From an uncultured virus (IMG/VR IMGVR_UViG_3300009285_007005) (taxonomy: Duplodnaviria > Heunggongvirae > Uroviricota > Caudoviricetes): a stretch of DNA of 64,000 bases. The notes beneath the pieces were generated by a model. That model was not told where the DNA came from. It searched no databases and was given only the letters and a program-made list of their open reading frames with translations. The translations under genes were made by a program, and so were the position numbers. Numbering within the stretch: position 1 is the first letter of the stretch; the number at the start of each line of letters is the position of its first letter. Below are positions 757 to 44,161 of the stretch, in pieces. Location of the stretch: the IMG/VR virus record IMGVR_UViG_3300009285_007005; one strand, 5' to 3'.

Positions 757-1500
757 ATGAAAATTTATCAAAAAATTTTCCTCGCCGGCTTGCTTATTAC
801 TCCTATTTCTGTTTTTGCCGTTACAATGACTAATGATGTAACTTTGCAGCTGGCTGATTCATATACTTTAACGGGCAATTCGTCTTATGACAGCATGGTT
901 GTTAATTCTGATAATTTTGTTTTTACCTTGTCTAACGGACAAAGTGCCAAGATTATATCAGCCGATTTAAGGAATTTTACGGTAAGTCCGAGCGTAAACG
1001 GAGCCCAAACCTGTGGTTCGTCTTCTTCTGAAGTTGCTATTAGTGTTGCGAACGGAGTTGCCGCAACAGCTATTACTGTAACTCCTTCCGGTTCATGCAC
1101 TACGTCTGCGGGCGGAGGCGGAATAATTGGCGGAGGGGGTGGTGGTGGAGGAGGCGGTGGTGGCGGTGGCAGCGCGCCTTATGTTCCGGCACAAACACCG
1201 GCTTCATCGTCAGGGGCTTCAGCGGCACAAAAAGCTCTCATAGAACAGTTACAATCTCAAATTGCGATGCTTATGGCCCAAATTACGGCTTTGAAAGGGG
1301 TTCTTTCGTTGCCTTCGCAGGCCTCGCCTGTAGCCGGCATTGCGCGGGCTTTAGCGTTTGGCGCGCAGGGAAGCGATGTTACTCTGCTTCAAACTTTTCT
1401 TGCGAAAGACCCGTCGATTTATCCTGAAGGGAAAATAACAGGTTATTTTGGAAGACTTACTTCAGCAGCAGTTAAGCGTTTTCAAAAGAAGCATGGAATC
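757..1500 (+). pseudogene. Secreted protein with a peptidoglycan-binding (PG_binding_1-like) domain, cut off at about 1500
   Basis: Signal peptide, poly-Gly linker, coiled coil, then 'LAFGAQGSDVTLLQTFL...ITGYFGRLTSAAVKRFQKKHGIE'. The ORF continues to 1773 only as an off-frame read of the recombinase. Confidence 0.65.
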
Positions 1501-2332
1501 GAGAGGGCTTTCGCCGAAAACGGTGGCAGCCTACATGAGCGATTTGGTCCTTGCCCTTGGCTCGACGGCTCCCGACCGCCTGTCGCTGGAGGCGACCCTG
1601 GCGAGATCCCGCGAGAGCGGCGCTTCGCCCAAGACCATTGCGCGCAGGCTGACGGCTGTACGCTCTTTCTTCCGATGGATGCGCGAGACCGGATACGCTG
1701 GGGCCGATCCGACGGAAGGCCTGCGGGTGAAGCAGACCACGCAATTTGTGCCGGCCTTTCTGACCGAAGATGAAACCGCGAGACTCCTGCGGACCATCAA
1801 GACCAGCGGAGACCGCAACAAGACGAGGGACTTGGCGATGATCCTGCTCATGTTGGAGCGGGGCTTGCGCGTTTCCGAAGTGGCTGGGATTGACTTCTCG
1901 GATATTGCCGAGGATGGCGACCACATGGCCGTCGTGGTGAACGAGAAGGGATTGAAGCGAAGCAAGAAAGCCCTCGGGCCGATGGCCAGGGCTGGTTTGC
2001 GCGCCCACATGCTTTCAAGGGTCTATGCGGAGAATGAGGCTTCTCCGGACGAGAAAAAGGTTTCCCTGGTCGGACCTGTTTTTCTCTCGGCTGAAAATAG
2101 CCGGATTTCCATCGGGCAAATTGAAAATCGCGTAAAGAAATGGGTGATGGCGGCCGGAATCGAAAAAAATGTCACTCCGCATTCCCTTCGGCACACCTTT
2201 GCTACGAAAATGTTCAAGGACTCGAACAACATCGTACTTCTCCAAATGGCGCTGGGCCATGCCAGCATCACCACGACAATGCGGTACGTTCATCCCATGA
2301 ATGACGATCTCGAAAAGGCTCTGGGTGCATGA
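1493..2332 (+). CDS. XerC/XerD-like tyrosine recombinase (N-terminus possibly clipped)
   Basis: 'GLSPKTVAAYMSDL', 'TIARRLTAVRSFFRW', 'GLRVSE' (catalytic R), 'TPHSLRHTFAT' (HxxR), 'LGHASITTTMRY' (H, Y). Confidence 0.93.
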   Translation: MESRGLSPKTVAAYMSDLVLALGSTAPDRLSLEATLARSRESGASPKTIARRLTAVRSFFRWMRETGYAGADPTEGLRVKQTTQFVPAFLTEDETARLLRTIKTSGDRNKTRDLAMILLMLERGLRVSEVAGIDFSDIAEDGDHMAVVVNEKGLKRSKKALGPMARAGLRAHMLSRVYAENEASPDEKKVSLVGPVFLSAENSRISIGQIENRVKKWVMAAGIEKNVTPHSLRHTFATKMFKDSNNIVLLQMALGHASITTTMRYVHPMNDDLEKALGA

Positions 2333-23070: not shown

Positions 23071-23072
23071 TA

Positions 23073-27404: not shown

Positions 27405-27406
27405 TC

Positions 27407-28562: not shown

Positions 28563-28650
28563 GGTTCATCGGTGCGGCCTTTTGTTGCTGAGGCGCGAAG
28601 CCGCACGGAAGGGAATTTTCGAGTTTTGTCTTGCACCTCAGCATAAGCCG

Positions 28651-28679
28651 AAAATAAACAATCTCTCCAGGTTTGTCAA
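28651..28679 (-). promoter_or_regulatory. Sigma70-type promoter driving a short structured transcript
   Basis: TTGACA(28679-28674)-17 bp-TATTTT(28656-28651). Confidence 0.6.
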
Positions 28680-28700
28680 GAGAAATCTCGTCAAGAGGAA

Positions 28701-28760
28701 ATTTTCCGGTAATTTCACCGTAATTTCGGCACGTGCAGATTTTCCGGTAATTTTACCGTA
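28701..28760. repeat. 22-bp direct repeat pair with internal dyad (operator- or iteron-like)
   Basis: ATTTTCCGGTAATTTCACCGTA (28701-28722) and ATTTTCCGGTAATTTTACCGTA (28739-28760). Confidence 0.8.
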
Positions 28761-28872
28761 CAAAAGAAGGTGAACGTCTCTTTTTTCCCAACCCACCGCT
28801 CCTATCGCTTGTTGCGTCCTTTCTCTTATGCTATTCAATTAGTGGTGGTTTCACGTCTTTGGAGAGGCGCTG

Positions 28873-29382: not shown

Positions 29383-29539
29383 TGCGCTGACAGTGGCCGA
29401 AGATGATGAAATGCTTGACTGACAAAATCCCAAAAAACTCCGCGCCCAGGACTTCCGTTTGCGTAAGCGGCGGACGGTTTCCATCAAGCAGCCGCATCGA
29501 GTCCTGGACGCGGATTCATTTCGGAAGGGGAAAATCATC

Positions 29540-30178: not shown

Positions 30179-30180
30179 CG

Positions 30181-31704
30181 ATGAAAAAAGACGCCGTTTT
30201 CTTTTCCAACGGGATCGGCAACTTCATCCTTGCGACGCCGCTGATCCGGCAACTCGATAACCCCGAAATCGTGATCCCGGCGGATGATGCGCGGGCCGCG
30301 GCCGTCGAAAGCCTCTCCTTGTGGCCGGTGCGTCGCGTAAGCCGGTCCGAGATAGCCGCATGCGCCGGCCAATACGGCCGGTGTCTCGTTCTCTGGTGTT
30401 TTCCGCAGGAATGGGCGCCGCAAGGACCGAACGTCATCCTGCAGCCATCTCCGGATTGGAGCAAGAGCGCCCACGAGACCGAAACCTACCTGAGTCTTTT
30501 GCCGGGAGCAAAGCCGGAAAAGACGGCCATCAAAACACGGCGCTCCTGGGATTTGCACCTCGGATCGCATCAACGCCTGGTTGCGATCTGCGACGGCGCC
30601 AATTCGCGGGCTCGCTGGAGGAATAAACGGCTGCCGGCAAGGGTTGTGGCGCGCCTCGCCCGCGAGCTTCTCGAAGCCTATCCCGATCTCCAATTCGTTT
30701 ACCTCGGAGACGAATCGGAAAAGATCATCGGCGATTCCGTCAAAATGCTGATCGGGAACCGCTGTTGGAACTTCGCCGGGCTGCTTTCCTTCGCCGAATC
30801 CTGCGGCCTTCTCGCTCAGTCGGATATGGTCATCACGAACGATACGGGGCTTATGCACGCCGCGGACGCGCTCGACCGGCCGATCGTGGCGATATGGTTT
30901 TGGACAAGCTGGGCAAAAAACCATCCCTGGAACGCAAAGGAGATTCGAGCGGTTAAGAGCCCCGGCGGCGGCTGTCCTCATTTCCCCTGCTTCGGCAAGC
31001 CGGAAATGTGGTCCTGCAATAATCCGGTCTGCACGTCCATTCCCTTCACCTGGATTTTTGAAGCCGCGCGGGAACTCGTCGTCGAAGCCTTCGCGGAAAA
31101 ACACGAATCCCCAAAGCCCCGAAAAATCCAGCCGAAGGAAATTCAAAAAGCCGTGGAGGATTACGGGGTCAACCACTGGCTGAAAAATCACGTATATCGA
31201 AACCTCCACACGAAGCCCTGGCACGCTTCCAGAATCAAGACGGTCTGCGAGAACATCCGCGGGAATTCCATTCTCGACGTGGCGTGTGCGACGGGCGAGC
31301 TGACGGCCGAGATCAAAAAAGCCGCAAACCCGGCGCGCATCGTCGCTTACGAGGGCTGCGGGGCCGTCCTGGAACAAGGGCGGGCGTGGCATCCCGACAT
31401 CGAATGGGTGCAAGGCCTGGTCGAGGATCTTCCAAAGCCGTTCCCGAAAAAGTCCTTTGACTCCATTCACGCCGGAGAAATCCTGGAGCACGTCACGGAC
31501 CCCAAGGGATTCATCAAGCGCCTCTCCGGGTTGACGCGGAACCAGCTTGTTCTCACGACCCCGAAAGATGTGGTGGTGGACCCGGGGCACGTTGCGATCT
31601 TCACCGAAGCCGCGCTCAAGGAACTTCTGGAAGTGCGTTTTCGGCAGGTGCGGATATTGGAATCCGAGCGTTCTTTCGTTGCCGTTGCGGAAAGGCCGCG
31701 ATAA
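30181..31704 (+). CDS. GT9 (heptosyltransferase-like) glycosyltransferase fused to a SAM methyltransferase
   Basis: 'GIGNFILATP', 'ITNDTGLMHAADAL'; C-terminal 'ILDVACATG', 'GEILEHV'. Confidence 0.88.
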   Translation: MKKDAVFFSNGIGNFILATPLIRQLDNPEIVIPADDARAAAVESLSLWPVRRVSRSEIAACAGQYGRCLVLWCFPQEWAPQGPNVILQPSPDWSKSAHETETYLSLLPGAKPEKTAIKTRRSWDLHLGSHQRLVAICDGANSRARWRNKRLPARVVARLARELLEAYPDLQFVYLGDESEKIIGDSVKMLIGNRCWNFAGLLSFAESCGLLAQSDMVITNDTGLMHAADALDRPIVAIWFWTSWAKNHPWNAKEIRAVKSPGGGCPHFPCFGKPEMWSCNNPVCTSIPFTWIFEAARELVVEAFAEKHESPKPRKIQPKEIQKAVEDYGVNHWLKNHVYRNLHTKPWHASRIKTVCENIRGNSILDVACATGELTAEIKKAANPARIVAYEGCGAVLEQGRAWHPDIEWVQGLVEDLPKPFPKKSFDSIHAGEILEHVTDPKGFIKRLSGLTRNQLVLTTPKDVVVDPGHVAIFTEAALKELLEVRFRQVRILESERSFVAVAERPR

Positions 31705-32423
31705 TGGACCCGCGCGACATTCCCCGCGTCTATCTCACGATGGCCTGCAACTTCCAGTGCGCTTACTGCCCGCAGATCCGTCCGCCGAAAAACAGGGCGT
31801 CGATCCCGGCCGGAGAGTGGATCGAAATCCTCAATTCGTGGTCCGGCGACGCGGTGATTCTCGCCGGCGGGGAGCCGACCATCCGGCTGGACTTCGCGGA
31901 GATCGTCAACGGCCTGCGGCACAAAGAGGTCAGACTTTACAGCAACCTCTCTTTCTCCGTTTCGCTCCTAGACCGGATTAAGCGCCCCTTGGCCTTTTAC
32001 GCCTCTTTTCATCCATCGGGGAAAGTGGATGCTTCAAGGGCCGCATCCCTTTTGCTGGCGGCGCTTGCCAAAAAGCACCGGCTCATCAATGTGCATATAA
32101 ATCGCGCCGCTGGCGATCCGGCTACTTATATCAGGATTTTCAGACGCCAGGGCTTCGACTTGAAAATCGAAGACGATCTTTTTAAGCATCCGAATCTGGC
32201 CGCGATGAGGAAATTTCCTCTGGGAAAGGTCGTCTGTTCTCTCCGGCGCACTTATCTGGGGCCGGACGGAAAGCGATATATCTGCGTCCGCAAGCTCGAA
32301 GAAGCGGACCCGACCGGCATCGTCGATCATCGGAATCCCGTTGCGGTTCTTCCGTGTGATAGGTACGGCGAATGCAGTCCGTGCGACTGTCCCCACCGAA
32401 CCGTCGCGAGTGGAAAGCCATGA
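31704..32423 (+). CDS. Radical SAM protein with Cys-rich C-terminus
   Basis: 'CNFQCAYC', 'GGEPT', 'LGPDGKRYIC', 'CSPCDC'. Confidence 0.88.
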   Translation: MDPRDIPRVYLTMACNFQCAYCPQIRPPKNRASIPAGEWIEILNSWSGDAVILAGGEPTIRLDFAEIVNGLRHKEVRLYSNLSFSVSLLDRIKRPLAFYASFHPSGKVDASRAASLLLAALAKKHRLINVHINRAAGDPATYIRIFRRQGFDLKIEDDLFKHPNLAAMRKFPLGKVVCSLRRTYLGPDGKRYICVRKLEEADPTGIVDHRNPVAVLPCDRYGECSPCDCPHRTVASGKP

Positions 32424-33484
32424 AGCCGGAAATCAGGATTTTATGGGTGACGGATATCCGATTTGACCGCGCGAAAGGCGATTGGTCCCAGACGATTTAC
32501 AACCTCCGGGCCATCGCCTCCCAGGAAATCGTGGTTGACGTGATGCATCCTCCCGGCGACGCCAAGCAGCAGGCGAACTTCGAAGTTTCCATCCCCGGCG
32601 TCGCCTATCACCGGAATACGAACGTCGGAAGAGCGGCCGAACTTCTTTGGAGGAGCGGGAAATATGCGGCGGCGATCGCGCGCGGCCCCGTCATCGCTCT
32701 CGACCTCGCAAGGTTTGTGCCGAAAAACCGCCTGATCGCTTATATCTATGGAAATTATTTTTCCGCGCCTGACCGGACGCTCAATCTGGTTTGGAAGTCC
32801 TGCGGCCAAATCATCGTCCAGGGAGAAGGACAATTGGCTTACATTAAAGCCAAGGGGCTTCCGATGGATCATGTCGTTGCCATCCCCAGCGTGATCGATG
32901 CCCAAAGATTTCTATCGGAAGTGCCCGTTGTCGGCGCAATCGGGTCTCTTTATACCTTCCAGTGCGTGGACCTTTGCATTGATGTCGTCAACAATATTCG
33001 AAAGAACATTCCGAACTGCCGGCTCATGGTCATCGGGAACGAAATGACCCAACCGCCTTCGGCATGGGAAGATAATCTTCTTCGTTGTATTCGAGGGACT
33101 CCCTGGATTGACTGGATTCCGGTTATCACTCACGAGGCTTTGCCGCTCGTTTATCATGAAATGAATCTGCTGCTTTCTCTTTTTGATCCGAACAGGGATC
33201 TCAACCGACCTTATTGCGCACATCTGCTCAAAACCAAGGTTCTGGAAGCTATGGCGGCCGGCGTTCCCGTCGTGGCGAACCGCTCATGGGGGAATCGTCA
33301 TCTACTTGGGGAAAATTACGAATATTTTGCGGATACTGTGGAAGAAGCGGTCCCGATCACGGTTCAAATTCTGAAAAATGCCTCGCTTCAGGAAAAAATA
33401 GGGAAAGAATTGATTGCTAGAGCCGCAGGTTTTGATCTTCCCGTCATCGGCAAAATGTATGCTGGGCTTTTTAGGAAAATTTAA
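32420..33484 (+). CDS. GT4-family glycosyltransferase
   Basis: 'TKVLEAMAAGVPVVAN'. Confidence 0.85.
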   Translation: MKPEIRILWVTDIRFDRAKGDWSQTIYNLRAIASQEIVVDVMHPPGDAKQQANFEVSIPGVAYHRNTNVGRAAELLWRSGKYAAAIARGPVIALDLARFVPKNRLIAYIYGNYFSAPDRTLNLVWKSCGQIIVQGEGQLAYIKAKGLPMDHVVAIPSVIDAQRFLSEVPVVGAIGSLYTFQCVDLCIDVVNNIRKNIPNCRLMVIGNEMTQPPSAWEDNLLRCIRGTPWIDWIPVITHEALPLVYHEMNLLLSLFDPNRDLNRPYCAHLLKTKVLEAMAAGVPVVANRSWGNRHLLGENYEYFADTVEEAVPITVQILKNASLQEKIGKELIARAAGFDLPVIGKMYAGLFRKI

Positions 33485-33524
33485 TGGCAAATGTTTGCAG
33501 AAACCCGTTCCAAGGAGGAATCAA

Positions 33525-34643
33525 ATGAATGACGACAAATTGATCTTCGACGCTCCGGACATCCCTGAAGCGGATGCCAAGGGGCAGGCGGAAATCGCCG
33601 ATACGTTCACCGCTGCCGAGAAGGTTGCGTTCATCGGCGCCGGGGCGGGAGGGTGCCGGGTCGCGGATGCGTTCTGGAAACTCGGATACCGGCGCGTCCT
33701 GGCCTTGAACACGACCGATCAGGACATGGCGCAACTGGCTTGCCCGAATCGTTTGATTATCGGGGCCGCTTCGGGCGCCGGAAAAGACCCAGCCAAGGGT
33801 AAACTGGCGGTTGAAGCCGAGATGGGAACGGTGGTTGACAAGATGCGTGAGGTCTTCGGTCCCGCGAAGCGGATTCTGATCTGCTGCGGGGGAGGCGGGG
33901 GCACCGGCACCGGGGCCGCGATTCCGCTGATTGAAGCGGCCAAGCGGTATGCCGACGCGACTGGCATGGAGAAAAAGATCGGCCTGATTGTCACGGTTCC
34001 CAAACGCACCGAAAGCGCCAAGGTGCAGGGCAACGCCTATCATCTGCTGGCCGAACTGTTCAGCCTGGTTGACGCCGGTTCGATCTCGCCCCTGATTCTG
34101 ATCGACAACGATACCGTGATCGGGCAATTTCCCAAGCTTTCAGCAGGCCCCGCCTATTGGGCCACGATCAACGATTACGTGGCCAGACTGTACCACGCCT
34201 TCAATCTTCTGGCCGGCCGCGAATCCGATATGGAGGTCTTCGATCCGCAGGAGTACAGGTCCGTCCTCGAATCCGGCTTCGTGGTCTTCGGGGCGGCAAG
34301 AATCGACGCTATGGACCGATCCTCAATCAGCGAAAGTATGCGCAAGGCGCTCCAAGCCAATTTCCTTTCCGAAGGCGTTGACTTCGGGACGGCCAAGTTC
34401 GCCGCGGCCTTGGCGGTGGCAAACGCTGAAACCCTGGATAAGATCCCGCGCGACGACATCGACCACGCGATCTCCATGCTGGCTCAATTCCTGAAGGTGG
34501 AAACGGTCTGCCTTGGGATTTACGAGGGCAACAACCCCGACCTACGGCTTTATACCATCGTGGGCGGACTGGAAGCCCCGCACGCACGGCTGGCTGACCT
34601 CCAAAAGCGCGGGATGATCGAAGAGAACGGCAAAGAAGGCTGA
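33525..34643 (+). CDS. FtsZ/tubulin-superfamily GTPase (TubZ/CetZ/PhuZ-like, not canonical FtsZ)
   Basis: 'FIGAGAGGCRVAD', 'ALNTT', 'GAGKDPAKG', 'GGGGGTGTG', 'ILIDND', T7-loop-like 'VFDPQEY'; AAGGAGG RBS. Confidence 0.9.
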   Translation: MNDDKLIFDAPDIPEADAKGQAEIADTFTAAEKVAFIGAGAGGCRVADAFWKLGYRRVLALNTTDQDMAQLACPNRLIIGAASGAGKDPAKGKLAVEAEMGTVVDKMREVFGPAKRILICCGGGGGTGTGAAIPLIEAAKRYADATGMEKKIGLIVTVPKRTESAKVQGNAYHLLAELFSLVDAGSISPLILIDNDTVIGQFPKLSAGPAYWATINDYVARLYHAFNLLAGRESDMEVFDPQEYRSVLESGFVVFGAARIDAMDRSSISESMRKALQANFLSEGVDFGTAKFAAALAVANAETLDKIPRDDIDHAISMLAQFLKVETVCLGIYEGNNPDLRLYTIVGGLEAPHARLADLQKRGMIEENGKEG

Positions 34644-34645
34644 GA

Positions 34646-35425
34646 ATGACCGCCGTCAAGATTTTCGTCTCCGTCCGCGACCGCTACCGTCAGACCGTGG
34701 CTTGCGTCGATTCGCTCAGTGCGACGACGGCGGGAAAGGCTGATATCTGCATTTACGACAACGGTTCGGAAGCGGAATTCGAGCCGCTGCAAAAGGCTTA
34801 TCGGGGCTGGCTTGCAAGTTGGAAGGTTTCGCAAGTCGTCTTGAATCGGCCGGACCTGCTATCGGGAGTCTACTGGTCCAAGAATTTCGCTTGGGCGCAG
34901 TTCCTCGCCATGATGGAACTCCTGCCGCCCTCGGAACGGGAATACCTCGTCATGGCCGACAACGATATCGTGGCAAAGCCCGGATGGCTGGAAGCATCCC
35001 TTAAAATCCTGGGCAAAGCCGAAAGCGATATCGCGGTGGTGAGTCCCTACGACGGGCCGCCCGACCCCAAGAGCAATCCGGAAATCTTCCATGTTCTCGA
35101 AGAAGCCGTTATTCAGGGACATAGGATTGAAATCCGCGACGCCTGCTGCTCCCGCCTCTGGGTTGCGCCCTACCGCTTCTGGCGGCGCTGGCCTCCTCCG
35201 ACTCACGAGCGGATTGAGCGGGATGGAAAACCCGACCGGATGCCGACCGACTGGTACTACTGGACGAAGATGCGGGAGGCGCGGCTGCGCTTCGCCGTCC
35301 TGACGCCTCCGCTTGCTCACAATCCGCAGCATTCGTGGTCTTCCGCCCGAATGGGCAACGGCATCGGAGCCGATTGCAAGGGGGAAAAGTCAACTTCTCC
35401 CAGCTTAAAGCCTGGGAGTTTGTAA
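34646..35425 (+). CDS. GT2-family glycosyltransferase
   Basis: 'ICIYDNGS', DxD 'ADND', 'PGWLE'. Confidence 0.82.
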   Translation: MTAVKIFVSVRDRYRQTVACVDSLSATTAGKADICIYDNGSEAEFEPLQKAYRGWLASWKVSQVVLNRPDLLSGVYWSKNFAWAQFLAMMELLPPSEREYLVMADNDIVAKPGWLEASLKILGKAESDIAVVSPYDGPPDPKSNPEIFHVLEEAVIQGHRIEIRDACCSRLWVAPYRFWRRWPPPTHERIERDGKPDRMPTDWYYWTKMREARLRFAVLTPPLAHNPQHSWSSARMGNGIGADCKGEKSTSPSLKPGSL

Positions 35426-35481
35426 CTGAGGGGTGCTCGATTGCACAGTGCTCGCTACTATAAGCCGTCGGTGAAAACTCA

Positions 35482-36594
35482 ATGAAAGTTCTGACGTTCC
35501 TGGAAAAGCCTGATCCGAAGGGAAAGCTGGTCGGAATTTCCGTCAACGGTCTCAGGATGGGCGGCTGCTCTTTCGTATTCCCCGACGGCATGGTCGATCA
35601 TCTGAAAAAGACCAAATACGCCTCTTACATCGCCAAATGCGAGGACCTGGTTGCGAAACCGTACAATGGCGAGCCGCTTCACGGAAAAACGATCCTCATG
35701 GTTCGCGCCGGCGGCTACGGCGACCTGCTCTTCCTAACGCCGTTGATTCGGAAGCTGAAACGGCTCTATCCGTCCTGCCGGATCGCCTTTGCGACGATGG
35801 GCGACAACACAATGGTTTTTTCCGGAAATCCGGATATCCTGAGATATTATTCCTATCCGATCCCTCTCCCGGCTTTTGAATCGGCTGATTTCCACATCCT
35901 CTTCGAAAATACGCTGGAAATGTCGAAGGACCCCGAACTGCACGCCGTCGATCTCTTCGCCGCCCATGCGCACGTCTCGCTTAATTTCGATGAAAAGATC
36001 CCGATCTACAGCCCGAGCCCGGCGAGAGTGGAGGCGGTGAGGCTGCGGCTGATCGAAAAGGGAATCCGACCGGACGTTCCCTGGATTGCCGTTCAACCGG
36101 CGGCGTCCTCTCCGATCCGGACCTACCCGGAACACCTCATGGCGAAAGTGATCGAAAAGCTCGTCCATTGCGGGAATGCCGTTCTTGTGCTGGGGAAGAA
36201 AGGCAATTTCCCCAAAAAGGCCCGGCAGGGCGGCGTATTCGACCTCTGTGGGGCTTTTGACGGCATGGCCGACTCTGTAGCTGCTCTCGCATCCTGCCGC
36301 GCCCTGGTGGCCCCTGATTCGTCCCTGACGCACTTCGCCGCGGCGATAGGCATTCCCACGGTCGCGCTCTACGGACCCTTCCCTGGGGCCGTCAGGACGA
36401 AATACTACCCCCGCTGCGTCACCCTGGAAGCCAAGGCGGACTGTGTGCCCTGTATGCTCCATGGCCACAAGCCCTGTCCGGAAGCGCAGAAGCTCTCTCA
36501 AGTGTGGTCTCCCTGCTTCGAATCCGTCTCTCCGAAGGCGGTTGTCGAGCAGGTCATGAATTTGAGGATGCAAAATGAGCAAAAAACAGCCTGA
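35482..36594 (+). CDS. GT9 (heptosyltransferase-like) glycosyltransferase
   Basis: 'RAGGYGDLLFLTP', 'VAPDSSLTHFAAAIGIPTVALYGP'. Confidence 0.9.
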   Translation: MKVLTFLEKPDPKGKLVGISVNGLRMGGCSFVFPDGMVDHLKKTKYASYIAKCEDLVAKPYNGEPLHGKTILMVRAGGYGDLLFLTPLIRKLKRLYPSCRIAFATMGDNTMVFSGNPDILRYYSYPIPLPAFESADFHILFENTLEMSKDPELHAVDLFAAHAHVSLNFDEKIPIYSPSPARVEAVRLRLIEKGIRPDVPWIAVQPAASSPIRTYPEHLMAKVIEKLVHCGNAVLVLGKKGNFPKKARQGGVFDLCGAFDGMADSVAALASCRALVAPDSSLTHFAAAIGIPTVALYGPFPGAVRTKYYPRCVTLEAKADCVPCMLHGHKPCPEAQKLSQVWSPCFESVSPKAVVEQVMNLRMQNEQKTA

Positions 36595-36784
36595 CGATGA
36601 ATTCGACGACGCCGATATCCCGCTACAGGACTTCAGCGAGCCCGAGCAGCCGGCTCCCGGCCAAGGTGATCTTTGTACGCGCTGCCAGTCCTGCCTCCCC
36701 AAGCAGCGGTGCGCAAGGCAAGCCGAGATGCCGGACCTGTATCTGACAGAATCAGGCGAAGAGAACTGCGACCTCTTCACCTAG
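36575..36784 (+). CDS. Small acidic Cys-containing protein
   Basis: GAGG RBS; 'CTRCQSC'. Confidence 0.45.
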   Translation: MSKKQPDDEFDDADIPLQDFSEPEQPAPGQGDLCTRCQSCLPKQRCARQAEMPDLYLTESGEENCDLFT

Positions 36785-36844
36785 AAGGAAGAAAAAACCC
36801 AGCCCCTTCCCGCCGTAAGGCGTTACCCAAGACCTCTCCCATTC

Positions 36845-36872
36845 GGCCCGGATGCGTCCGGGCCTCTTTTTT
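36845..36872 (+). terminator. Rho-independent terminator ending the glycan/tubulin operon
   Basis: GGCCCGGA-TGCG-TCCGGGCC followed by TCTTTTTT. Confidence 0.8.
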
Positions 36873-36873
36873 C

Positions 36874-36902
36874 GTGTGCAGCCGGTGTGCATCGGTTGGC
36901 AC
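36874..36902. promoter_or_regulatory. Putative integrase arm-type sites
   Basis: GTGTGCA (36874), GTGTGCA (36885), TTGGCAC (36896) at 11-bp spacing, about 120 bp from the att core. Confidence 0.5.
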
Positions 36903-36921
36903 TAATTACCATCAATTACAA

Positions 36922-37161
36922 TCAATCTCTCGCAATTCCCATTGTCCAGAAGGGAGAGATGAGGCCATTGGGGCGGGATGCAACTTGGCGATATTTAAGA
37001 GATTTCCATTCAATTCCAACGGTTTGCGAAAGGGGGGACTCGAACCCACACGGGCTAAGCCCACTGGACCCTATCGCCTTGGCGAGCCGAAAAGGCTTCC
37101 CGTCAAATTTTTTCTTGACCAACTCCCGTATTCGATCAGATATGATTGGAATATCCAGCAC
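36922..37161 (-). pseudogene. N-terminal fragment of an XRE/CI-type repressor interrupted by the att core
   Basis: 'ISDRIRELVKKKFDGKPFRLAKAIG' then tRNA-derived 'SSGLSPCGFESP'; divergent from the early promoter. Confidence 0.6.
37025..37073 (-). mobile_element. att core: 3' half of tRNA-Leu(TAG)
   Basis: Minus strand TAG GG TCCAG T GGGC-TTA-GCCC GT GTGGG-TTCGAGT-CCCCC CTTTCGC A: anticodon, long variable arm, T arm and acceptor 3' strand; the 5' half is absent. Confidence 0.85.
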
Positions 37162-37194
37162 TTAAAAAATTCTTTAAAATCTTTTATTTTTTTG

Positions 37195-37223
37195 TTGACA
37201 AGGCCTCTGTTTTCTTTTACTCT
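37195..37223 (+). promoter_or_regulatory. Early rightward sigma70 promoter
   Basis: TTGACA-17 bp-TACTCT with an AT-rich upstream region. Confidence 0.7.
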
Positions 37224-37282
37224 CGCAATCGCTGAATCGGGGAAAACCCGATTTCGAGGAAATAGTGGGGCAAAATAGCAAA

Positions 37283-37534
37283 ATGCAAGAAGGAACGCAA
37301 TCCATCCAACCCCCGGATGAACTCGTTTCCCCTACCGAAGCCGCGCGGAGGCTTGGCATTACTCCGGGGACATTGGCGATCTGGGCGGATGAGGGGAAAG
37401 TTCCCTGCATCAAAACGGAAGGCGGGCATCGGCGATACCTGATTTCCGCTATCGATGCTCTCCTGAAAAAATTGTCCTGCAAACCAGAGACCGAAATCCC
37501 GGATGAGCCGAAAACTGAACCGGAGGCGACATGA
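37283..37534 (+). CDS. Excisionase-like / MerR-type HTH protein (Cro position)
   Basis: 'VSPTEAARRLGITPGTLAIWADEGKVPCIKTEGGHRRY'. Confidence 0.85.
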   Translation: MQEGTQSIQPPDELVSPTEAARRLGITPGTLAIWADEGKVPCIKTEGGHRRYLISAIDALLKKLSCKPETEIPDEPKTEPEAT

Positions 37535-37842
37535 AAACTCCGGCACGCGCCACCTCCATCCCCAAACGCGGATTCTCCGTCAAAGAATCTGCCATCTATC
37601 TCGGCGTCTCCCAGTGGACCGTCCGAAAGTTGATCGCTGCCGGACGATTGCCTCACTGTTTTGCGGGGGAGCCTTTCGATCCCTACCGGTTCACCCGCGG
37701 AAAGCGCAGCAAGGGGAAAATCGTCATCCTCAAAGAAACGCTCGATGAACTTCTCGACAATATGCACCAGTATGGCGCTCTTCCGGACCTTGAATCGCCA
37801 AATCCTTTAAAATTAGCCTCCGGCGGTCAGGCTCCGGTTTAG
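37531..37842 (+). CDS. Excisionase-like HTH_17 protein
   Basis: 'FSVKESAIYLGVSQWTVRKLIAAGRLP'. Confidence 0.8.
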   Translation: MKTPARATSIPKRGFSVKESAIYLGVSQWTVRKLIAAGRLPHCFAGEPFDPYRFTRGKRSKGKIVILKETLDELLDNMHQYGALPDLESPNPLKLASGGQAPV

Positions 37843-37901
37843 TTTCGATTTTCGTATTTCGTTTCATGCCGGCAGAATAAGCCGGCCGTGGGAGAAGGGG
37901 A

Positions 37902-38375
37902 ATGAGAGATTTGAAAAATGATTCTCATGTTAGTTTTTTCGAAATCATCCAATCCGAAATCCACCACCATCCGGAATTATCCGCCGCACAGATAGCGGAT
38001 CGCGTCGGCAAGGCCTTATCGACTTTTTATAACGAATTGAATCCCGACGTTAAGGAGGCGAAACTCGGCGTTGGAACCTACAGAATCTATCTGCGCGAGA
38101 CGCATTGCCTTGCCTCGCTGGATCTCATCGAATCGGAAAACGGCCGCGTGGCCATCGATCTCCGCAAGATCGGGAACGGATCGAAGGATGTCCAGGTCTG
38201 CGCCGCCGCCATGCTCAAGGGTGCCGGCGAACTCCTCGAAATGTTCACCTCCTTGAACGGGAAAGGAAACGCTCAGGAAAGGCGGCGGGAACGGGATCAA
38301 TTCAACAAGAAGGCCGATCAAGCCATCGCGGCTGTCGAACTTTTCCGGCGGGCCGTAGTGAAGGGGAAATCATGA
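37902..38375 (+). CDS. Phage CII-like regulatory protein
   Basis: 'AQIADRVGKALSTFYNELNPD...AKLG'. Confidence 0.65.
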   Translation: MRDLKNDSHVSFFEIIQSEIHHHPELSAAQIADRVGKALSTFYNELNPDVKEAKLGVGTYRIYLRETHCLASLDLIESENGRVAIDLRKIGNGSKDVQVCAAAMLKGAGELLEMFTSLNGKGNAQERRRERDQFNKKADQAIAAVELFRRAVVKGKS

Positions 38376-38923
38376 AAACTTACCGTATCCGAATCAACGG
38401 GCAGCTTTTCGAGGTCGAAACGGATCAAAAGTATATCACCAATGAGCAATTAAAAGAAATCGGCTGTATCCCCCCAGATCACATTTTTAAAAGATCAAAC
38501 GTGGGCGAATTCGACAGCGGGGAATTATGGTTTGATCCCTCCGATGACGTGAGCGGCGGGCAATCAGCCGGAAAAAAGATTTACGAATTTGTTTACGAGC
38601 CTCCTTTCAAATGGCGAAAAATCAACGAGGACGGCAAGGATTTTCCAGGGGAAGACCTCACGCCGGAAGAGCAGCAGCGCGTCATCGAATACGCGACGGA
38701 GGAAGTCCGTTCCCAGCTTCCGGTCTGGATCTCCCGCATGGCGCGCGACGGGCAATGCCCGCGGTGCGGGAGCGAAGGCAAGGTGATTTCCGGCACGGTC
38801 AGTCCCGGTCTTCACGGCGATATCATCGACAATATGGGGGAATATGACTGCCCGATCTGCTCGGAATTTCGGCGGCGCGGGCGAAAGATAACGGAGGTCG
38901 AGGAATGCCTGACCCGACGATGA
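38372..38923 (+). CDS. Hypothetical protein with C-terminal Zn ribbon
   Basis: 'CPRCG...CPIC'. Confidence 0.45.
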   Translation: MKTYRIRINGQLFEVETDQKYITNEQLKEIGCIPPDHIFKRSNVGEFDSGELWFDPSDDVSGGQSAGKKIYEFVYEPPFKWRKINEDGKDFPGEDLTPEEQQRVIEYATEEVRSQLPVWISRMARDGQCPRCGSEGKVISGTVSPGLHGDIIDNMGEYDCPICSEFRRRGRKITEVEECLTRR

Positions 38924-39077
38924 CTTTTCACGGATCGACGTTTCTGGTCATGGCCGGATGCGCAATCGGGGCGTTCCTTTTCGCAAAGCCGGTTTGCCGC
39001 GCGATCCTATGGACGATCCGGATTCGGGAGAGTTTGGAAAGGCTTCTTGCGAGAGGTATTCGCGGCGGGGCGGTCGA

Positions 39078-39350
39078 ATGAAGAAACTTCTCGATTTTTT
39101 CCGCGATTTATTTACGGTCACGATGGCGATTCCTCGCCGTATTGAACATCTATTTTCCCACAGAAGCGAAAATTCTGCGGTGGAAAATGACTTCCGGAAT
39201 TACGTCAACGCCGCAAGCGCAATGAGCCGGATTCAGAAGGACATGGCGGTGCGTTGCGCGGGGTGCGCGTACGACGGCCTTTGCCGGCCCGATCGAGAAT
39301 CCTGCCCCTGGGCGGAACTCAGGCACTACATCGAGTCAACTCTTTTTTGA
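39078..39350 (+). CDS. Hypothetical protein
   Basis: 'CAGCAY...C...CP'. Confidence 0.4.
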   Translation: MKKLLDFFRDLFTVTMAIPRRIEHLFSHRSENSAVENDFRNYVNAASAMSRIQKDMAVRCAGCAYDGLCRPDRESCPWAELRHYIESTLF

Positions 39351-39810
39351 AAATCGAAACGGCGAGTCATCCCATCCGGTCGGCCTCCGCGCCTCCTTTC
39401 ACCGGATGCGGGAAAAGGCTGGCAGGCCCCATGACAAGGCGGTGCGAGTCCGCCTCTCGCCTGATCTTTGAAAAGCGAAATGGCGACTGCGGCGTGGATG
39501 GACACGCGGCTAGTTAGTAGGCGGAAGAGGTAACTGACCACATGAGATTGCGACCCGGAAAACGCGAACGAGAGGCTGAAAAACGGCGAAGGCGGGGTAG
39601 CCATAGCTACTACTGCCCAACCGCTGCGGGGTGGATAACGCTGAAGCTCGGACGCAAAAAGATGGGCAAGAGTATTCGCAGTTTTTTGTCTGACAGTGGC
39701 CGACGCCGAACCCCCGCCAAAAAGGAGGCGTTATGAGAGTCCATCGCTTCCTAGCCGGTATCAAGCCCAGCCAGTCGCCACCGGCGCGGCGCACGCCTAG
39801 AAATGCGCCA

Positions 39811-39885
39811 GGCGGTCAAGGTGAAGTTGAGTTCCCGTTTATGGGGAAATACATTCGACAGCCGGTTCGAGTCCGGTAGCCGCCT
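39811..39885 (+). ncRNA. tRNA-like element lacking a D arm and canonical anticodon arm
   Basis: GGCGGT/GCCGCC acceptor-like stem; GCCGG-TTCGAGT-CCGGT T arm. Confidence 0.45.
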
Positions 39886-40009
39886 ATCCAAGCCGGATTT
39901 ACCGGCGAAGGGGAGTTAGAGGATAACTGCTACCTTTACCCCAACGGAGAAAAGTCAGTCCGCTTCCCGGCTCACGGAGCAGAACCGGGGAAACCAAAAG
40001 GAGGACCGA

Positions 40010-40261
40010 ATGGAATTGAAATGGAAAGGCGACGAATTCACACAGAACGCTAATATCGGCGGCGGCTTGGCCTTCGATGTATGGAGCGAAGAGGACGATG
40101 AGTGGTGCGCGGCGTTGGTGCGACCGAAAATTGATGGTGACTGCCTACACCTTTGCAAACCGCTGAAAACAATGGCGGCGGCGAAGAAACGTTGCCAAAA
40201 AGTATATGACGGACTGGTGGATCACGCCTGCTACCGCGCTCCTGTCCGCAACCGGGAGTAA
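40010..40261 (+). CDS. Small phage protein
   Basis: AGGAGG RBS; 'MELKW...MAAAKKRCQ'. Confidence 0.55.
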   Translation: MELKWKGDEFTQNANIGGGLAFDVWSEEDDEWCAALVRPKIDGDCLHLCKPLKTMAAAKKRCQKVYDGLVDHACYRAPVRNRE

Positions 40262-40371
40262 GCGAATTGAAAAGTCATCCGGCTCCGAGGCCGTGGTGGC
40301 GGCGGAAGCCGAACTCGAATTCAGGAACGAGCACAACAAACACATTTGGGACTGAAAAGAGGGGATAACAA

Positions 40372-41631
40372 ATGAGCACGGCTGTTGCAAAAATCGAACA
40401 ATTGAACCGGATGAGTCCGGACGAACTGAAAAAACAACCCGCGGAAGCCTTGGCGGTTTACGCCGACAGCCTGCGCTCGAACAAGATCGCGGCCCTGGGG
40501 GACGGGCAGGTCTTCGTCAGGCGGGATGAGAAGGGCGTGGCGCGCGGTTTTGTCGGGCAAGTCAGCCTTTCCGTCAAGAACAACGAAATCTACAACGTCC
40601 AGGGCAAGACGAAGATTTCCGCGGACGGCTATACGAAGCTCAATCAGATTGCCGGTGTTTCCATCGTGACGCCTCCGACTCTGAGTCTCCCGGATGGTCA
40701 GCGGGTCGTCAACCCCTACATCCTGCGCGAAACGGACCCCATGACGAAACGCTCAAGGACCGTAGGCGTCTGGGTTCGGAAAACAGCGGTGGGATACGCG
40801 CCGACCGGAAGCCTCATGGTGATTGACGGGTCGCTCTATCTCGACCTGGAGATTTACTTCCTCCAGGACGTGATGAAGAAGATTTCCAAAGCCAAGGAGG
40901 CCGGTCGCCTTTGCCTCTTCGGACAGATCACGGATGAGGAGAAGAAAACCTGTCTCATCCTTCCCTACCAATTTGGAATTTACGTCGTCGCCAAACTTTC
41001 TCATCAGGAAATTCTCTCCGCGCTCGACACTCATATCCAGCGGCAGAAGTTCGCGGAGCGTGTCGCGGTCACGATCTGCGAGCGAAACGTGCTTCGGAAA
41101 CATCCAGCCATCGCCGCCTCTCAGGTCGATGCTCTCGCCAAAGGGGAAAGCTGGGACAAGATGCCCGACAAGGTGCAGGTGAAAGTCTTCGGATGGGCGC
41201 ACGACATGACTCCGAAAGATATCGAGAAAGCCGCCCATGCCGCCGATTCCGATGAGCCGACTCCAGGCGTCCAGGTTCAGCGGTCAACCGTGAAAACGAC
41301 CGAAACCGAAGAGGGCCAAACAATCGACATGGAGGATATGGAGGGAGCCTACGAAGATGCGGCAACGGAAGAGGCGGGTGGAAAAGAACCCAGTAAGCCT
41401 GCCGACGAAGGGGGCGAGGATGAACCGCCCAAGCCCTTCGAATTCGATCCCACGCAGACCCCGAAGATGCAGAAGGAAGCCCTGATCGAAGTTTACGGCC
41501 TCAATCCCTTCATCGCGGCCTGGGATGAAACGGTCGGAACGGAATGGACGAAAGCCTCTCCCGAGCAAAAGCGCGAAGCCCTCATCAAGATCGCCGATCA
41601 ACTCAAAAAGATGCAGGAGGCGACCGAATGA
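40372..41631 (+). CDS. Single-strand annealing protein-like (RecT/Bet-like), tentative
   Basis: 'ISADGYTKLNQIA', 'ERVAVTICERNVLRK', acidic C-terminal linker; upstream of the SMC ATPase and helicase. Confidence 0.5.
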   Translation: MSTAVAKIEQLNRMSPDELKKQPAEALAVYADSLRSNKIAALGDGQVFVRRDEKGVARGFVGQVSLSVKNNEIYNVQGKTKISADGYTKLNQIAGVSIVTPPTLSLPDGQRVVNPYILRETDPMTKRSRTVGVWVRKTAVGYAPTGSLMVIDGSLYLDLEIYFLQDVMKKISKAKEAGRLCLFGQITDEEKKTCLILPYQFGIYVVAKLSHQEILSALDTHIQRQKFAERVAVTICERNVLRKHPAIAASQVDALAKGESWDKMPDKVQVKVFGWAHDMTPKDIEKAAHAADSDEPTPGVQVQRSTVKTTETEEGQTIDMEDMEGAYEDAATEEAGGKEPSKPADEGGEDEPPKPFEFDPTQTPKMQKEALIEVYGLNPFIAAWDETVGTEWTKASPEQKREALIKIADQLKKMQEATE

Positions 41632-43880
41632 GGCTGACACGACTCACCATCAGCGGACTCAAGGGGCAGCAGGCAACCCATGAATTCACCGGGGCGGAAC
41701 TTCTGCTCGGCCCCAACGGTGTCGGGAAATCCGCACGCCTGAACGCCGTCGAAATTCTGATTCTCGGCTACGCTCACCGTCCCGATGGACAGCGATACGA
41801 GACGATGGAACTCGCATCGGGCGACGACCTTGAAGTCAGCGGGGAATTCGACGTGGGAGAAGTCATCAACTTCCGCGCTTCCCGCCGCTTCCATCGAAAG
41901 AAAAGCGGCTCCATCACTCAGATCGTCACGATCAACGGCGAAGAAATCTCTACCACGGATGGCGAGAGGATCATCGCGGAACGGCTCGGCAAGGTTCCAG
42001 TGATGTTCAACCCGATGGAATTCCTTTCCAAAACCCCTGACAAGCGGCGGGAATTCCTGCGACCCTATCTGCCCGCAATCGGTGGGGATGTTCTGGAAGA
42101 GATCGTTTACGGAACCTACCGGGAAGTCCTGACAGGCGAAGCGACGGATGCGGTTCTGTCGGTCATCGCCGAGGGAAAGCCCTTTCATGAACTTCCTAAA
42201 GAGCAGGGGTTGGTAGTCCTCGATCAATTGGCGTCGATGGTCCAGAAAAAGGATCAGCGGGCAATGGATGGAATCTCTGTGGTCGCCTGCGTCATGCACA
42301 ACTGCCAGAACGGCGCGCCCGAAGCCACTCTCGAAAAAGCCCACCTTCGGATCAAGGACGAGATCAAGGTCGCCAAACGGAAAGTCGGAGACGCCGAAAA
42401 GACGGTCAAAACCCTCTCGGCCCAGAAGGCGACGGCCGCGGCTACGGCATCGGGCCGTCCCGAACTCGAAACCGAGATCGCCAAGCTGAAAATCGACATC
42501 CTGAACGCCGAACGCGCCAAGTCCGCCGGTGCCGAGAAGGAAAAGGCTCACACCGAGCGCCAGGAACGCCTCAGCAAGCTCGAAACGAAGCGGGCGGGGC
42601 TTTCAAGCCCGGTGGATCTTTCTGGGCTTGAGGCTGATCTGAAGGCCAAGAACGAGGCATTGGGGAAGGCTAGGACCGCCCTGACAACCGCCCTTGACGA
42701 ATGGAAAGCCGATCAACAGTCGGATTTCCCAGAACAGAAAATCGGGGGATTTTACCTCAAATCCAATGCGGATGTTCTGGGCGCTCTTGCTCAGAAAATT
42801 TCCGGTATTGAGGTTTGCATCGGCTCAAAAGAACATTACATCGTCACCCCCCCCCTCGATCTCACCTGCCCCGGATGCGGTCTTGCGCTAAAGCCCGATA
42901 CGCAAAAGGTTCAGCAGGAAATCAGCGCACTCAATATCGATCTGAAAACCTCAAAGGCGGAATACAAGAAACTGGACGACGAAGGCAACAAATATGTCGC
43001 TGGGTTGTGCTCCAAGGCTGAGGGCATCAAGGGCCTACGGGAAAACCTGAAAACCGCCAAAGAAGAAGCCAACACCGCCGCCGATGAATTTTCGAAAGCA
43101 GTCACTTCGGAATCCGAACGGGAGGGCAAACTCGCCGAGGTCGAAGAGGAAATCTTCGCCATTCAAAAGCAGGATCAGGCCGACTCCGGGAGCAACCTGG
43201 AAGACCTGGAAGCCCAAATTCGGGGCCTGAACTCCAGCCTGCAAACAAAGGAAGCCGATCTCAAGAAAAAGGATTTGGCGCAGGGCATTCTCAACCAGAT
43301 CGAGAAATCCGTCCTGGACGCAAAGCTCGCCGAGAAGTCCCTGGAAATCTGGAAAATGGCCGAGCAGGGCTTGAAGTCCGTCCGCAACCGTCTCGTTGAC
43401 GGTCTGGTCAAAACGATCACGGAAACGGCGAACAACCTCCTGCGGCTCATCGACCCCGCGCTTTCTCTGGCCGTCATCCTGGAAGACGAGGAAGGCAACC
43501 AGGTCTTCGATCTCAGGTTCACGAAGGACGGCGCGACACGGAACCTCTCGGTGCTTTCCGGCGGAGAAACGATCCTGGCCGTCTCGGTGGCGCTGGCTAC
43601 GGCCCTCATCGCCATCGTGAAACCGCCGCTGCGCATCCTGGGGATCGAGGCCGCGGAAACGGATGGATTGAATCTGGAATCCTTACTTAAAGGAGCGAAG
43701 ACGATGCTGGATAACGGGCATCTCGACAACGTGCTCGTGGCCTCATGCGCCAAGGTTTATGACGCACAATATCTCAAGGAATTGGAAGGGCTCCCGGCGG
43801 AGATCAAGGACATCCTGATAAGGGAATGTGCGGTCGTCCCTGGCGGCTGGAACGTCATCCGGCTTGGGGGTGCGGGATGA
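41628..43880 (+). CDS. Rad50/SbcC-like SMC-family ATPase with zinc hook
   Basis: Walker A 'GPNGVGKS', coiled coils, 'CPGCG' hook, signature 'LSGGE'. Confidence 0.85.
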   Translation: MRLTRLTISGLKGQQATHEFTGAELLLGPNGVGKSARLNAVEILILGYAHRPDGQRYETMELASGDDLEVSGEFDVGEVINFRASRRFHRKKSGSITQIVTINGEEISTTDGERIIAERLGKVPVMFNPMEFLSKTPDKRREFLRPYLPAIGGDVLEEIVYGTYREVLTGEATDAVLSVIAEGKPFHELPKEQGLVVLDQLASMVQKKDQRAMDGISVVACVMHNCQNGAPEATLEKAHLRIKDEIKVAKRKVGDAEKTVKTLSAQKATAAATASGRPELETEIAKLKIDILNAERAKSAGAEKEKAHTERQERLSKLETKRAGLSSPVDLSGLEADLKAKNEALGKARTALTTALDEWKADQQSDFPEQKIGGFYLKSNADVLGALAQKISGIEVCIGSKEHYIVTPPLDLTCPGCGLALKPDTQKVQQEISALNIDLKTSKAEYKKLDDEGNKYVAGLCSKAEGIKGLRENLKTAKEEANTAADEFSKAVTSESEREGKLAEVEEEIFAIQKQDQADSGSNLEDLEAQIRGLNSSLQTKEADLKKKDLAQGILNQIEKSVLDAKLAEKSLEIWKMAEQGLKSVRNRLVDGLVKTITETANNLLRLIDPALSLAVILEDEEGNQVFDLRFTKDGATRNLSVLSGGETILAVSVALATALIAIVKPPLRILGIEAAETDGLNLESLLKGAKTMLDNGHLDNVLVASCAKVYDAQYLKELEGLPAEIKDILIRECAVVPGGWNVIRLGGAG

Positions 43881-44161
43881 GCGACCTACCCCATGTCATC
43901 ATCGAGATCGTCCGCGAACTCGAACAGGATCGAAAATCAGTCTGTGGCGATTTGGCTGATATGACTTCGGAAAAGAATCGATACCAGCGGATGCATTACA
44001 ACGCGATCAAAGAAATCGATGAGGGAAAGGCCGCACAGGATAAACTGAGAAAAGAAAACGAAGCCCTCAATACCCACCAGATCAACCAAGCCGGTGAAAT
44101 CTACAAACTGAGAAAAGAAAACGAAGCCCTTAAAAAGCAGGCCGAGAGGAAGCGGAAATGA
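43877..44161 (+). CDS. Coiled-coil protein with internal duplication
   Basis: 'KLRKENEAL' twice, with an exact nucleotide repeat. Confidence 0.5.
   Translation: MSDLPHVIIEIVRELEQDRKSVCGDLADMTSEKNRYQRMHYNAIKEIDEGKAAQDKLRKENEALNTHQINQAGEIYKLRKENEALKKQAERKRK

Follow-up and report, generated by a model that had tools for sequence, protein, structure and literature searches.

How did the 3′ part of a transfer RNA (tRNA) gene come to be joined, in the same orientation and in frame, to the start of a small leftward open reading frame (ORF) in a phage genome? The locus lies near the middle of a 64,000-nt stretch of DNA (the window) from an uncultured caudovirus (IMG/VR IMGVR_UViG_3300009285_007005), which belongs to a contig of 78,307 bp. 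The ORF (36922-37161, minus strand) encodes 79 amino acids (aa). Its first 31 codons, the stub, are non-tRNA sequence ending in ATA GGG (Ile30-Gly31), after which the frame continues through a 49-nt piece of tRNA-Leu(UAG), the core, and into the left flank. Such a same-orientation, in-frame join had been described in a first-pass annotation of this DNA and was borne out by the translation. The site is likely a scar left by a deletion in the lysogeny module; the phage would be a myovirus that was once temperate and integrated at a tRNA gene.

Read by eye on the minus strand from 37073 down to 37025, the core corresponds to a class II tRNA from its anticodon onward: anticodon TAG and G37 come first, then the anticodon stem (3′ strand) and a long variable arm (GGGC-TTA-GCCC), then a T-arm (GTGGG-TTCGAGT-CCCCC) whose stem is mispaired once, at U50-C64, and finally the acceptor strand CTTTCGC and the discriminator A. 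The bases 5′ of TAG are GA rather than the YU expected in an anticodon loop, so that U33 is not kept and the tRNA identity starts at position 34. When 37020-37080 (minus strand) was compared with 50,697 phage records by blastn, query positions 8-56, corresponding to 37073-37025, were aligned. The best matches were annotated tRNA-Leu genes, with 81.6% identity over 49 nt from the anticodon to the discriminator, and an unannotated place in the phage records matched with 88% identity over 42 nt. The alignment therefore covers the 3′ part of a tRNA gene, as does the core of a phage attachment site (attP), and the reading of this piece as tRNA-Leu(TAG) with identity beginning at the anticodon loop was confirmed. 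ARAGORN reported 0 tRNA genes in the window and, at the core, gave only a forced, mispaired model under relaxed settings. Rfam returned only a weak clan match for the core (17.7 bits, E 1.2), and the sequence is therefore a tRNA fragment; with an incomplete cloverleaf and no 5′ half at this position, it is not a functional tRNA-Leu gene. The T-stem mismatch is as would be expected for an unused copy. A 36-mer from the core occurs once in the window, against 0 expected. Exact searches with this 36-mer in viral contigs, with a 47-mer (two N) in one genome per species, and with a 23-mer in metagenome contigs gave no match, and these collections thus yielded no host tRNA or sister attP.

The core-stub junction is not a misassembly. 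The window stretch was found in four sequencing runs from two samples of one groundwater study (S1, which may be the source of the window, and S2). A 27,056-nt Logan contig from S1 and a 7,220-nt contig from S2 (33589-40808) bridged the junction with 0 differences, and the Logan contigs of both samples had no joints or loose ends there. Misassembly, which the first-pass annotation had listed as a refutation, was thereby excluded. Alternative continuations at 37073, which it had suggested looking for, were sought in the contigs of the four runs; only the deleted form was seen, although contigs drop rare variants and minority forms could be missed.

Homologues of the window's GT9 glycosyltransferase gene (GT9) were aligned and led to locus L033 (IMG/VR IMGVR_UViG_3300048839_001709). 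Its whole record, G001, comprises 67,603 bp with direct terminal repeats and has a CheckV completeness of 100%. Matches to G001 were obtained for 20 of the 78 window ORFs, in colinear order (Table 1), and the 78,307-bp contig fits a single genome of the G001 plan. In the window, genes for sheath, tape measure, baseplate, and a collagen-like fiber occupy 1-30 kb (Pfam, PHROGs). They are followed at 31.7-36.8 kb (31704-36784, plus strand) by an operon encoding radical-SAM, GT1, FtsZ/tubulin-like, GT2, and GT9 proteins and a 69-aa Cys-rich ORF. The region from 37.2 to 64 kb carries early and replication genes, including two HTH_17 genes (HTH, helix-turn-helix) and CII-like, UvrD, methylase, SNF2, DnaB, RuvC-like, and ParB-like genes. 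By this content and the colinearity with G001, the whole window is one myovirus-like phage genome in vegetative gene order.

These data bear on the view that the locus joins two elements, as an attL (the left junction of an integrated prophage) beside other prophage or host DNA, or as an assembly chimera with window halves from different genomes. A displaced tRNA 3′ fragment beside phage early genes does have the look of an attL, and the early genes on the right resemble a module of unrelated prophages that have an integrase at the prophage end. A two-element origin is nevertheless very improbable, given that both halves are colinear with one complete relative, including the genes on each side of the site, that the 78.3-kb contig fits a single genome of uniform GC content along the window, and that the bridging contigs from both samples agree. 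An attL junction with its integrase at the far prophage end was likewise considered and dropped, given the tail genes on the left side and the colinearity with G001.

No close relatives were found by megablast of 36800-46000 against phage records, by tblastn of a 419-aa protein, or by locus searches with single proteins (CII-like, 419-aa, GT9, and sheath). Five of the fetched loci (L033, L091, L089, L090, and L102) have genes in common with the window beyond the glycosyltransferase cassette. In L033, GT9 ends at 11032, and the following 248-nt gap (11033-11280) holds a minus-strand tRNA 3′ fragment (T-arm GCAGG-TTCGACT-CCTGC; Rfam tRNA 19.4 bits) with repeated TTGACAAYATRTTGACAA motifs on its flanks. 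After this core, all leftward, come a tyrosine integrase gene (11281-12357), an SNase-like gene, and a CI gene (12902-13531; HTH_3 and Peptidase_S24). The second locus, L091 (Ga0307928_10000050), is a 60,968-bp metagenome contig with 66-85% nucleotide identity to L033 over the matched segments (66-72% over the longest). Its core differs from that of L033 by 1 nt, and its integrase is 69% identical. The integrase gene is followed by an M78-like gene (by eye, from HExxH), an SNase gene, an IS3 insertion (by eye), and a 126-aa CI-like gene (14756-15136), then by a 111-nt gap and two HTH_17 genes. The insertion (13299-14473), between the nuclease and CI-like genes, consists of two overlapping IS3-type transposase-like ORFs (orfA/orfB, by eye).

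The modules of L033/G001 and L091 are like the window in genome plan, in their place after GT2-GT9, in a minus-strand tRNA 3′ core starting in the anticodon loop, in a left arm of ~150 nt, and in the rightward HTH_17 genes that follow. Both also have P′ arm repeats and genes for a tyrosine integrase, a nuclease, and a CI-like protein, all absent from the window site. The tRNA from which their core comes is a different one, by eye Arg(ACG). Their tRNA identity runs from loop position 32 (CTACGAA), directly beyond which the two sequences diverge from each other; the core boundary in the window falls within the loop, at position 34. Between the GT9 stop and the excisionase-family gene, the window measures 936 nt, compared with ~3.9 kb in G001. 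What the window interval keeps is the 69-aa ORF and a terminator, a flank of ~150 nt, the core, the 31-codon stub, and a 103-nt AT-rich gap. The comparison with relatives, which the first-pass annotation had advised, thus places the tRNA piece at the attP position of the group and finds the integrase, its neighbors, and the P′ arm absent there.

The DNA on both sides of the interval has counterparts in these relatives. The GT2 and GT9 products are 54% and 45% identical to those of the adjacent genes in G001/L033 and 52% and 44% identical to those of L091, and homologues of the excisionase-family gene were detected in G001 (54976-55365, E 5.8e-6, phmmer) and L091 (E 2e-5). A hidden Markov model (HMM) of the first HTH_17 family, with L091, L089, and L090 in the model, also found L033 and L100, which marks the DNA to the right of the stub as native to the phage group and not a foreign module. 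L089 and L090, like L091, have a leftward CI/XRE-like gene just upstream of the HTH_17 gene. In L089, a short CI-like gene (10769-11332, minus strand) directly adjoins and overlaps the 3′ end of GT9 (9917-11077, plus strand), with no att core or integrase between them, a further integrase-less state of this map position. A more distant set comprised 31 IMG/VR loci that share a module of 419-aa, SMC-like, and UvrD genes. Among them, the 11 with a contig end <7 kb upstream were examined, with 48 of 110 ORFs scanned. Nine of the 11 had an integrase at the end (seven tyrosine, two serine), a leftward XRE-type HTH gene (weak in L019), and a rightward HTH gene, and they follow the same general plan as the attP-integrase-repressor layout.

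Because the core stands at the attP place of the group and relatives carry a leftward CI/XRE gene, a deletion from the core into the repressor is the most economical account. The ancestor would have had, in order, the glycosyltransferase cassette, an attP (P arm, tRNA-derived core, P′ arm), a leftward integrase gene with accessory genes, and a leftward CI-type repressor gene facing the rightward HTH_17 genes, a layout still present in two relatives. One deletion of ~2-4 kb would then have taken the P′ arm, the integrase, the accessory genes, and the repressor beyond about codon 31. It would have left the P arm, the 49-nt core, and a stub that by chance stays open through the tRNA sequence. The scar itself would be without function, and the 79-aa ORF is probably a by-product that makes no working protein. 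With no integration by an enzyme of its own and no CI-type repressor at this site, lytic growth is most likely for this phage.

The absence of an integrase was examined across the window. An HMM of eight tyrosine integrases from the fetched loci, run against 1,196 window ORFs, gave one strong match (1439-2329, E 3e-15), the next being at E 1.5; no serine recombinase was found with a two-sequence HMM, whose best match had E 1.6. Pfam, PHROGs, and these models detected no recombinase between ~2.3 kb and 64 kb of the window, and none was found within ~25 kb on either side of the core. In both relatives, the integrase lies 40-90 nt from the core. The single match is a Xer-type enzyme, 31% identical (E 2e-40) to the product of G001 13762-14865 and only 24% identical over 161 aa to the attP-adjacent integrase of G001. 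Because G001 has both a Xer-type enzyme and a separate integrase, the Xer-type enzyme has another, conserved role, and the window lacks a counterpart of the integrase proper. Dimer resolution and an inversion switch are possibilities for that role. The Xer-type gene is followed by a gene for a small HTH-like protein (2329-2865, plus strand), a 452-aa ORF that would be the portal by position alone and has no family match, and a ClpP-protease head gene. The statement that the integrase is missing accordingly stands for the surroundings of the core; for the whole genome it is qualified by the Xer-type gene and by the part of the contig outside the window.

The flanks of the core were compared for arm-type repeats by counting 8-mers common to both flanks in either orientation, with 500 dinucleotide-preserving shuffles as the null. 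The attP of L033 had 10 shared 8-mers (null mean 1.6) and that of L091 had 12 (null mean 1.3), numbers reached in 0 of 500 shuffles in both cases. The window core had four, comprising one 10-mer and one 8-mer (null mean 1.4, P 0.09), and thus has no arm-type repeats on both sides. This result fits a site that has lost one arm, P′. The remaining flank (36874-37024) has ~150 nt with an AT-rich center and the short repeats GTGTGCAGCCG/GTGTGCATCGG and TCAATTACAA/TCAATTCCAA, which may act as arm sites. The putative arm sites of the first-pass annotation (36874-37025) are therefore present as short repeats, which may be no more numerous than expected by chance. When the 166 fetched loci were all searched by blastn with 36785-37265, the matches were 14-22 nt long and at chance level, and a sigma-70 promoter scan of 36500-37600 found no consensus promoter.

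A working attP would explain several of these features differently. The phage would integrate into a host tRNA-Leu(UAG) gene by means of the Xer-type enzyme or of an integrase encoded in the outer 14 kb of the contig, and the ORF would be a chance frame over the P′ arm. The core and its ~150-nt left flank are intact, two excisionase-family genes and a CII-like gene remain beside them, a tyrosine recombinase is encoded in the window, the stub has no significant homology to anything, and the two flanks of the core have a 10-mer (CTCTCGCAAT) and one 8-mer in common. Such a site is improbable, however, because G001 holds both a Xer-type enzyme and an attP-adjacent integrase, so that the former is not the integrase there, and because the window flanks lack the arm repeats seen at both intact attP sites. 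In addition, the tRNA identity ends two bases short of the loop start seen in relatives, U33 is lost, and the T-stem has a mismatch. No contig of the four runs contained a host tRNA-Leu half or a hybrid junction, a weak point in view of the rare forms that contigs drop.

A number of observations weigh against the deletion scar and against a repressor as the source of the stub. At the distance of the relatives (30-55% protein identity, cores from another tRNA), the deletion is not read base by base. A core and integrase were found in only two of the five relatives (L033 and L091), and no integrase was present in the 10 kb fetched on either side of GT9 in L089, L090, and L102. The lysogeny module is thus variable in the group, and the one pointer to its loss in the lineage of the window is the orphan core. 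A tyrosine recombinase gene does occur in the window, 35 kb from the core, and the 14.3 kb of the contig outside the window could hold an integrase. The 79-aa ORF begins at a GTG that immediately follows a TAA, and no Shine-Dalgarno sequence precedes it, compared with 18 of 25 confident genes that have one. Versions of the ORF of 31, 48, and 79 aa matched nothing in Pfam even at E 10, and the stub ORF matched no sequence in the PDB. BLASTP of the stub against the CI proteins of L033 and L091 gave nonsignificant E values of 0.2 and 4.0. An HMM of 16 XRE proteins from distant prophages ranked the stub 23 of 1,196 window ORFs; a three-sequence CI HMM ranked it 54 of 1,196, or 49 with the N-terminal part only, in the same register (7-23). 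The scores were 0.5-0.7 bits, and a two-sequence CI HMM reported no domain. AlphaFold2 (AF2) without an alignment gave the 79-aa ORF a mean predicted local distance difference test (pLDDT) score of 46, a predicted template-modeling (pTM) score of 0.21, and one helix (7-18). The codon-usage score of the stub was ambiguous at -0.003 bits per codon (real genes 0.33 ± 0.20, wrong frames -0.49 ± 0.41). Finally, an exhaustive search of 1.84 billion representatives returned only two matches to the 79-aa ORF (P0156 and P0157). These are long repetitive ORFs with eight matched stretches each, and by eye at least one of the two ORFs (P0157) shares the T-arm-coded stretch; they look like translated tandem tRNA- or SINE-like (short interspersed element) repeats and are probably gene-calling artifacts. 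A word-indexed protein search with the 79-aa ORF also found no homologue.

The case for a repressor comes from elsewhere. A gap of 103 nt separates the start of the stub from the first HTH_17 gene (37265), and the stub is leftward and divergent from this first early gene, as a repressor gene would be. By eye it has a helix-1/helix-2 pattern (DRIRELVKKK...LAKAIG) that ends at the turn glycine. In the ESM Atlas, the 79-aa ORF was nearest to viral HTH_3/HTH_26 clusters of ~80 aa (0.90-0.92, 127/256 features), which is a lead only. The five-helix HTH domain of a repressor was not recognizable by Pfam, by the HMMs, or by AF2. The "CI-like" label given to the stub in the first-pass annotation therefore did not hold as a homology: no Pfam, PDB, or significant HMM match was obtained, and the likeness to XRE/CI proteins is a lead, suggested by map position and the language model and not statistically significant. 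Modeling of the 79-aa product, also suggested there, yielded no predicted fold. A repressor origin of the stub nonetheless appears just probable.

The first-pass annotation had also pointed to phages with attP in the repressor gene. Integration-dependent immunity is described for mycobacteriophage BPs and for clusters G, I, N, and P in PMC4557955. According to that paper, the BPs repressor gene is followed at once, on its own strand, by a cotranscribed integrase gene; only the last 33 residues are exchanged, so that integration removes a C-terminal tag and leaves the DNA-binding domain whole. Applied to the window, attP would lie in a small repressor gene whose viral (79 aa) and prophage forms differ at the C terminus. 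As in these documented systems, a leftward regulator ORF contains the att core and diverges from a rightward early gene; it begins at the divergent promoter region and crosses the core in the same orientation as the tRNA, and the ESM Atlas sets the whole 79-aa sequence near viral HTH clusters of its own length. Unlike in BPs, no integrase lies downstream, where there are only 150 nt of noncoding DNA, a terminator, and a convergent operon. The core, at codons 30-31 of 79 and not near the C terminus, precedes the recognition helix and would replace it, leaving no intact DNA-binding domain. The product has no predicted fold (AF2), its GTG has no Shine-Dalgarno sequence, and no homologue was found among the 1.84 billion representatives. 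A degradation tag was not seen either, although no search aimed at one was made. A BPs-type arrangement is accordingly highly unlikely here.

Within the preferred reading of a deletion scar, the break falls within the anticodon loop, where the overlap region usually is and where tyrosine integrases often cross over. An integrase and another process account for it equally well. Both partners would have had TAGGG in common if the Ile-Gly codons were part of the repressor gene, and this fits a pseudo-core crossover and a microhomology deletion equally. The first-pass annotation had proposed recombination between att and a pseudo-core that removed the repressor C terminus and the integrase. Of this proposal the deletion stands, and catalysis by the integrase is not separable from microhomology. 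That the phage integrase itself recombined the core with a TAGGG-like pseudo-core in the HTH turn of the repressor, cutting out integrase and repressor genes as a circle, is a rather unlikely event. Lytic phages would then arise from temperate ones repeatedly and by the action of an enzyme, because the Ile/Val-Gly turn codons of many such repressors can resemble anticodon-loop sequences. Nothing favored the programmed excision switch that had been offered as an alternative; the contigs of two samples contain only the deleted form.

Temperate phages are well known to lose lysogeny genes by deletion, and the window scar would be a further case. Mycobacteriophage D29, relative to L5, and virulent lactococcal P335-type phages are lytic or integration-defective derivatives that arose by deletion in the lysogeny module. 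As in these phages, temperate circuitry is partly kept (in the window, the CII-like and excisionase-like genes), the repressor and/or integrase is deleted, and a readable scar remains. Unlike them, the window deletion is deduced from distant relatives, and one of its ends coincides with a tRNA-derived core. Early 1970s genetics of phage lambda described Int-promoted deletions with one end at the att crossover point and the other at a secondary site in the DNA of the phage itself. The window deletion resembles these in having one end in the presumed core overlap, the anticodon loop, and in the loss of one att arm with retention of the other. It differs in that no enzyme, partner site, or reciprocal product is visible, and microhomology (possibly TAGGG) is an equally good explanation. 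If the integrase did make the break, the site would bear on the origin of lytic from temperate phages.

For annotation, the tRNA fragment and the excisionase-like and CII-like genes, the latter a leftover of temperate circuitry, would make pipelines call this phage temperate with a tRNA-Leu site, whereas the comparison indicates that the integration and repressor genes are gone from the site. The scar also gives a clue to the host, which would be a bacterium with a tRNA-Leu(UAG) that matches the core in its 3′ half. In this group of 60-80 kb groundwater myoviruses, the lysogeny module is often gained and lost, with an integrase kept in two of the five relatives.

Table 1. Features of the window at and around the tRNA-derived core, and segments shared with the complete relative G001
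Feature	Position in window	Strand	Basis or remark
tRNA-Leu(UAG) 3′ part, positions 34-73, att core	37025..37073	-	blastn, Rfam, 36-mer count
First 31 codons of the 79-aa ORF, probably stub of a leftward repressor gene	37069..37161	-	Position, ESM lead
P-arm-like flank, retained	36874..37024	.	Repeats; length and place equal to P arms of L033 and L091
Intrinsic-terminator-like hairpin with T run, ends cassette	36845..36873	+	Also weak terminator-like Rfam matches
AT-rich divergent intergenic region, 103 nt	37162..37264	.	L091 gap at same place is 111 nt
GT2	34646..35425	+	Pfam; with GT9, left syntenic anchor and end of glycan-modification cassette
GT9, heptosyltransferase-like	35482..36594	+	Pfam
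69-aa Cys-rich ORF, last cassette gene	36575..36784	+	ORF list, no family match
First rightward HTH_17/MerR/BldC-like regulator, 89 aa	37265..37534	+	Pfam, NCBIfam
Excisionase-family HTH protein, 103 aa, right syntenic anchor	37531..37842	+	TIGR01764 29.9 bits (cut-off 28.8)
CII-like transcriptional activator	37902..38375	+	Pfam Phage_CP76 34.5 bits, phrog_101
Xer-type tyrosine recombinase, sole recombinase in window	1448..2332	+	Pfam Phage_integrase 118.6 bits and Phage_int_SAM_1
Head and tail genes	5102-27404		G001 20639-38590
GT2, GT9	34646-36594		G001 49053-51064
DnaB	54449-55789		G001 65783-67126
Early genes	60159 and 61153		G001 2001 and 8017

Further observations concern the surroundings of the locus. 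The GT2-GT9 pair occupies the same place in G001 and L091, inside larger glycan-modification islands; the cassette had been considered as freshly captured host DNA, and this was ruled out by the shared position in G001/L091 and by best homologues that are only 52-57% identical. The FtsZ/tubulin-like gene of the same operon matched TIGR00065 with 69 bits, far under the cut-off of 295, and G001 gave no tubulin-like match. An IS1595-family transposase-like gene (62518-63423, plus strand; NF033547 81 bits, Zn_ribbon_IS1595) has no counterpart in G001. A 35-nt stretch at 41960-41994 also occurs, with three differences, in an unrelated 1,375-nt contig of all four runs that has loose ends on both sides. 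Within a noncoding stretch of ~650 nt (39350-40010), a tRNA-like element (39805-39884, plus strand) has a 7-bp acceptor stem, a perfect T-arm (GCCGG-TTCGAGT-CCGGT), an anticodon loop GTTTATG (anticodon TTA, reading the stop UAA), and a poor D-arm. ARAGORN called it tRNA-Stop(tta) at a relaxed threshold only, Rfam gave 17.9 bits, and the fold z-score was -3.15; the element may be a decayed or unusual suppressor-type tRNA.

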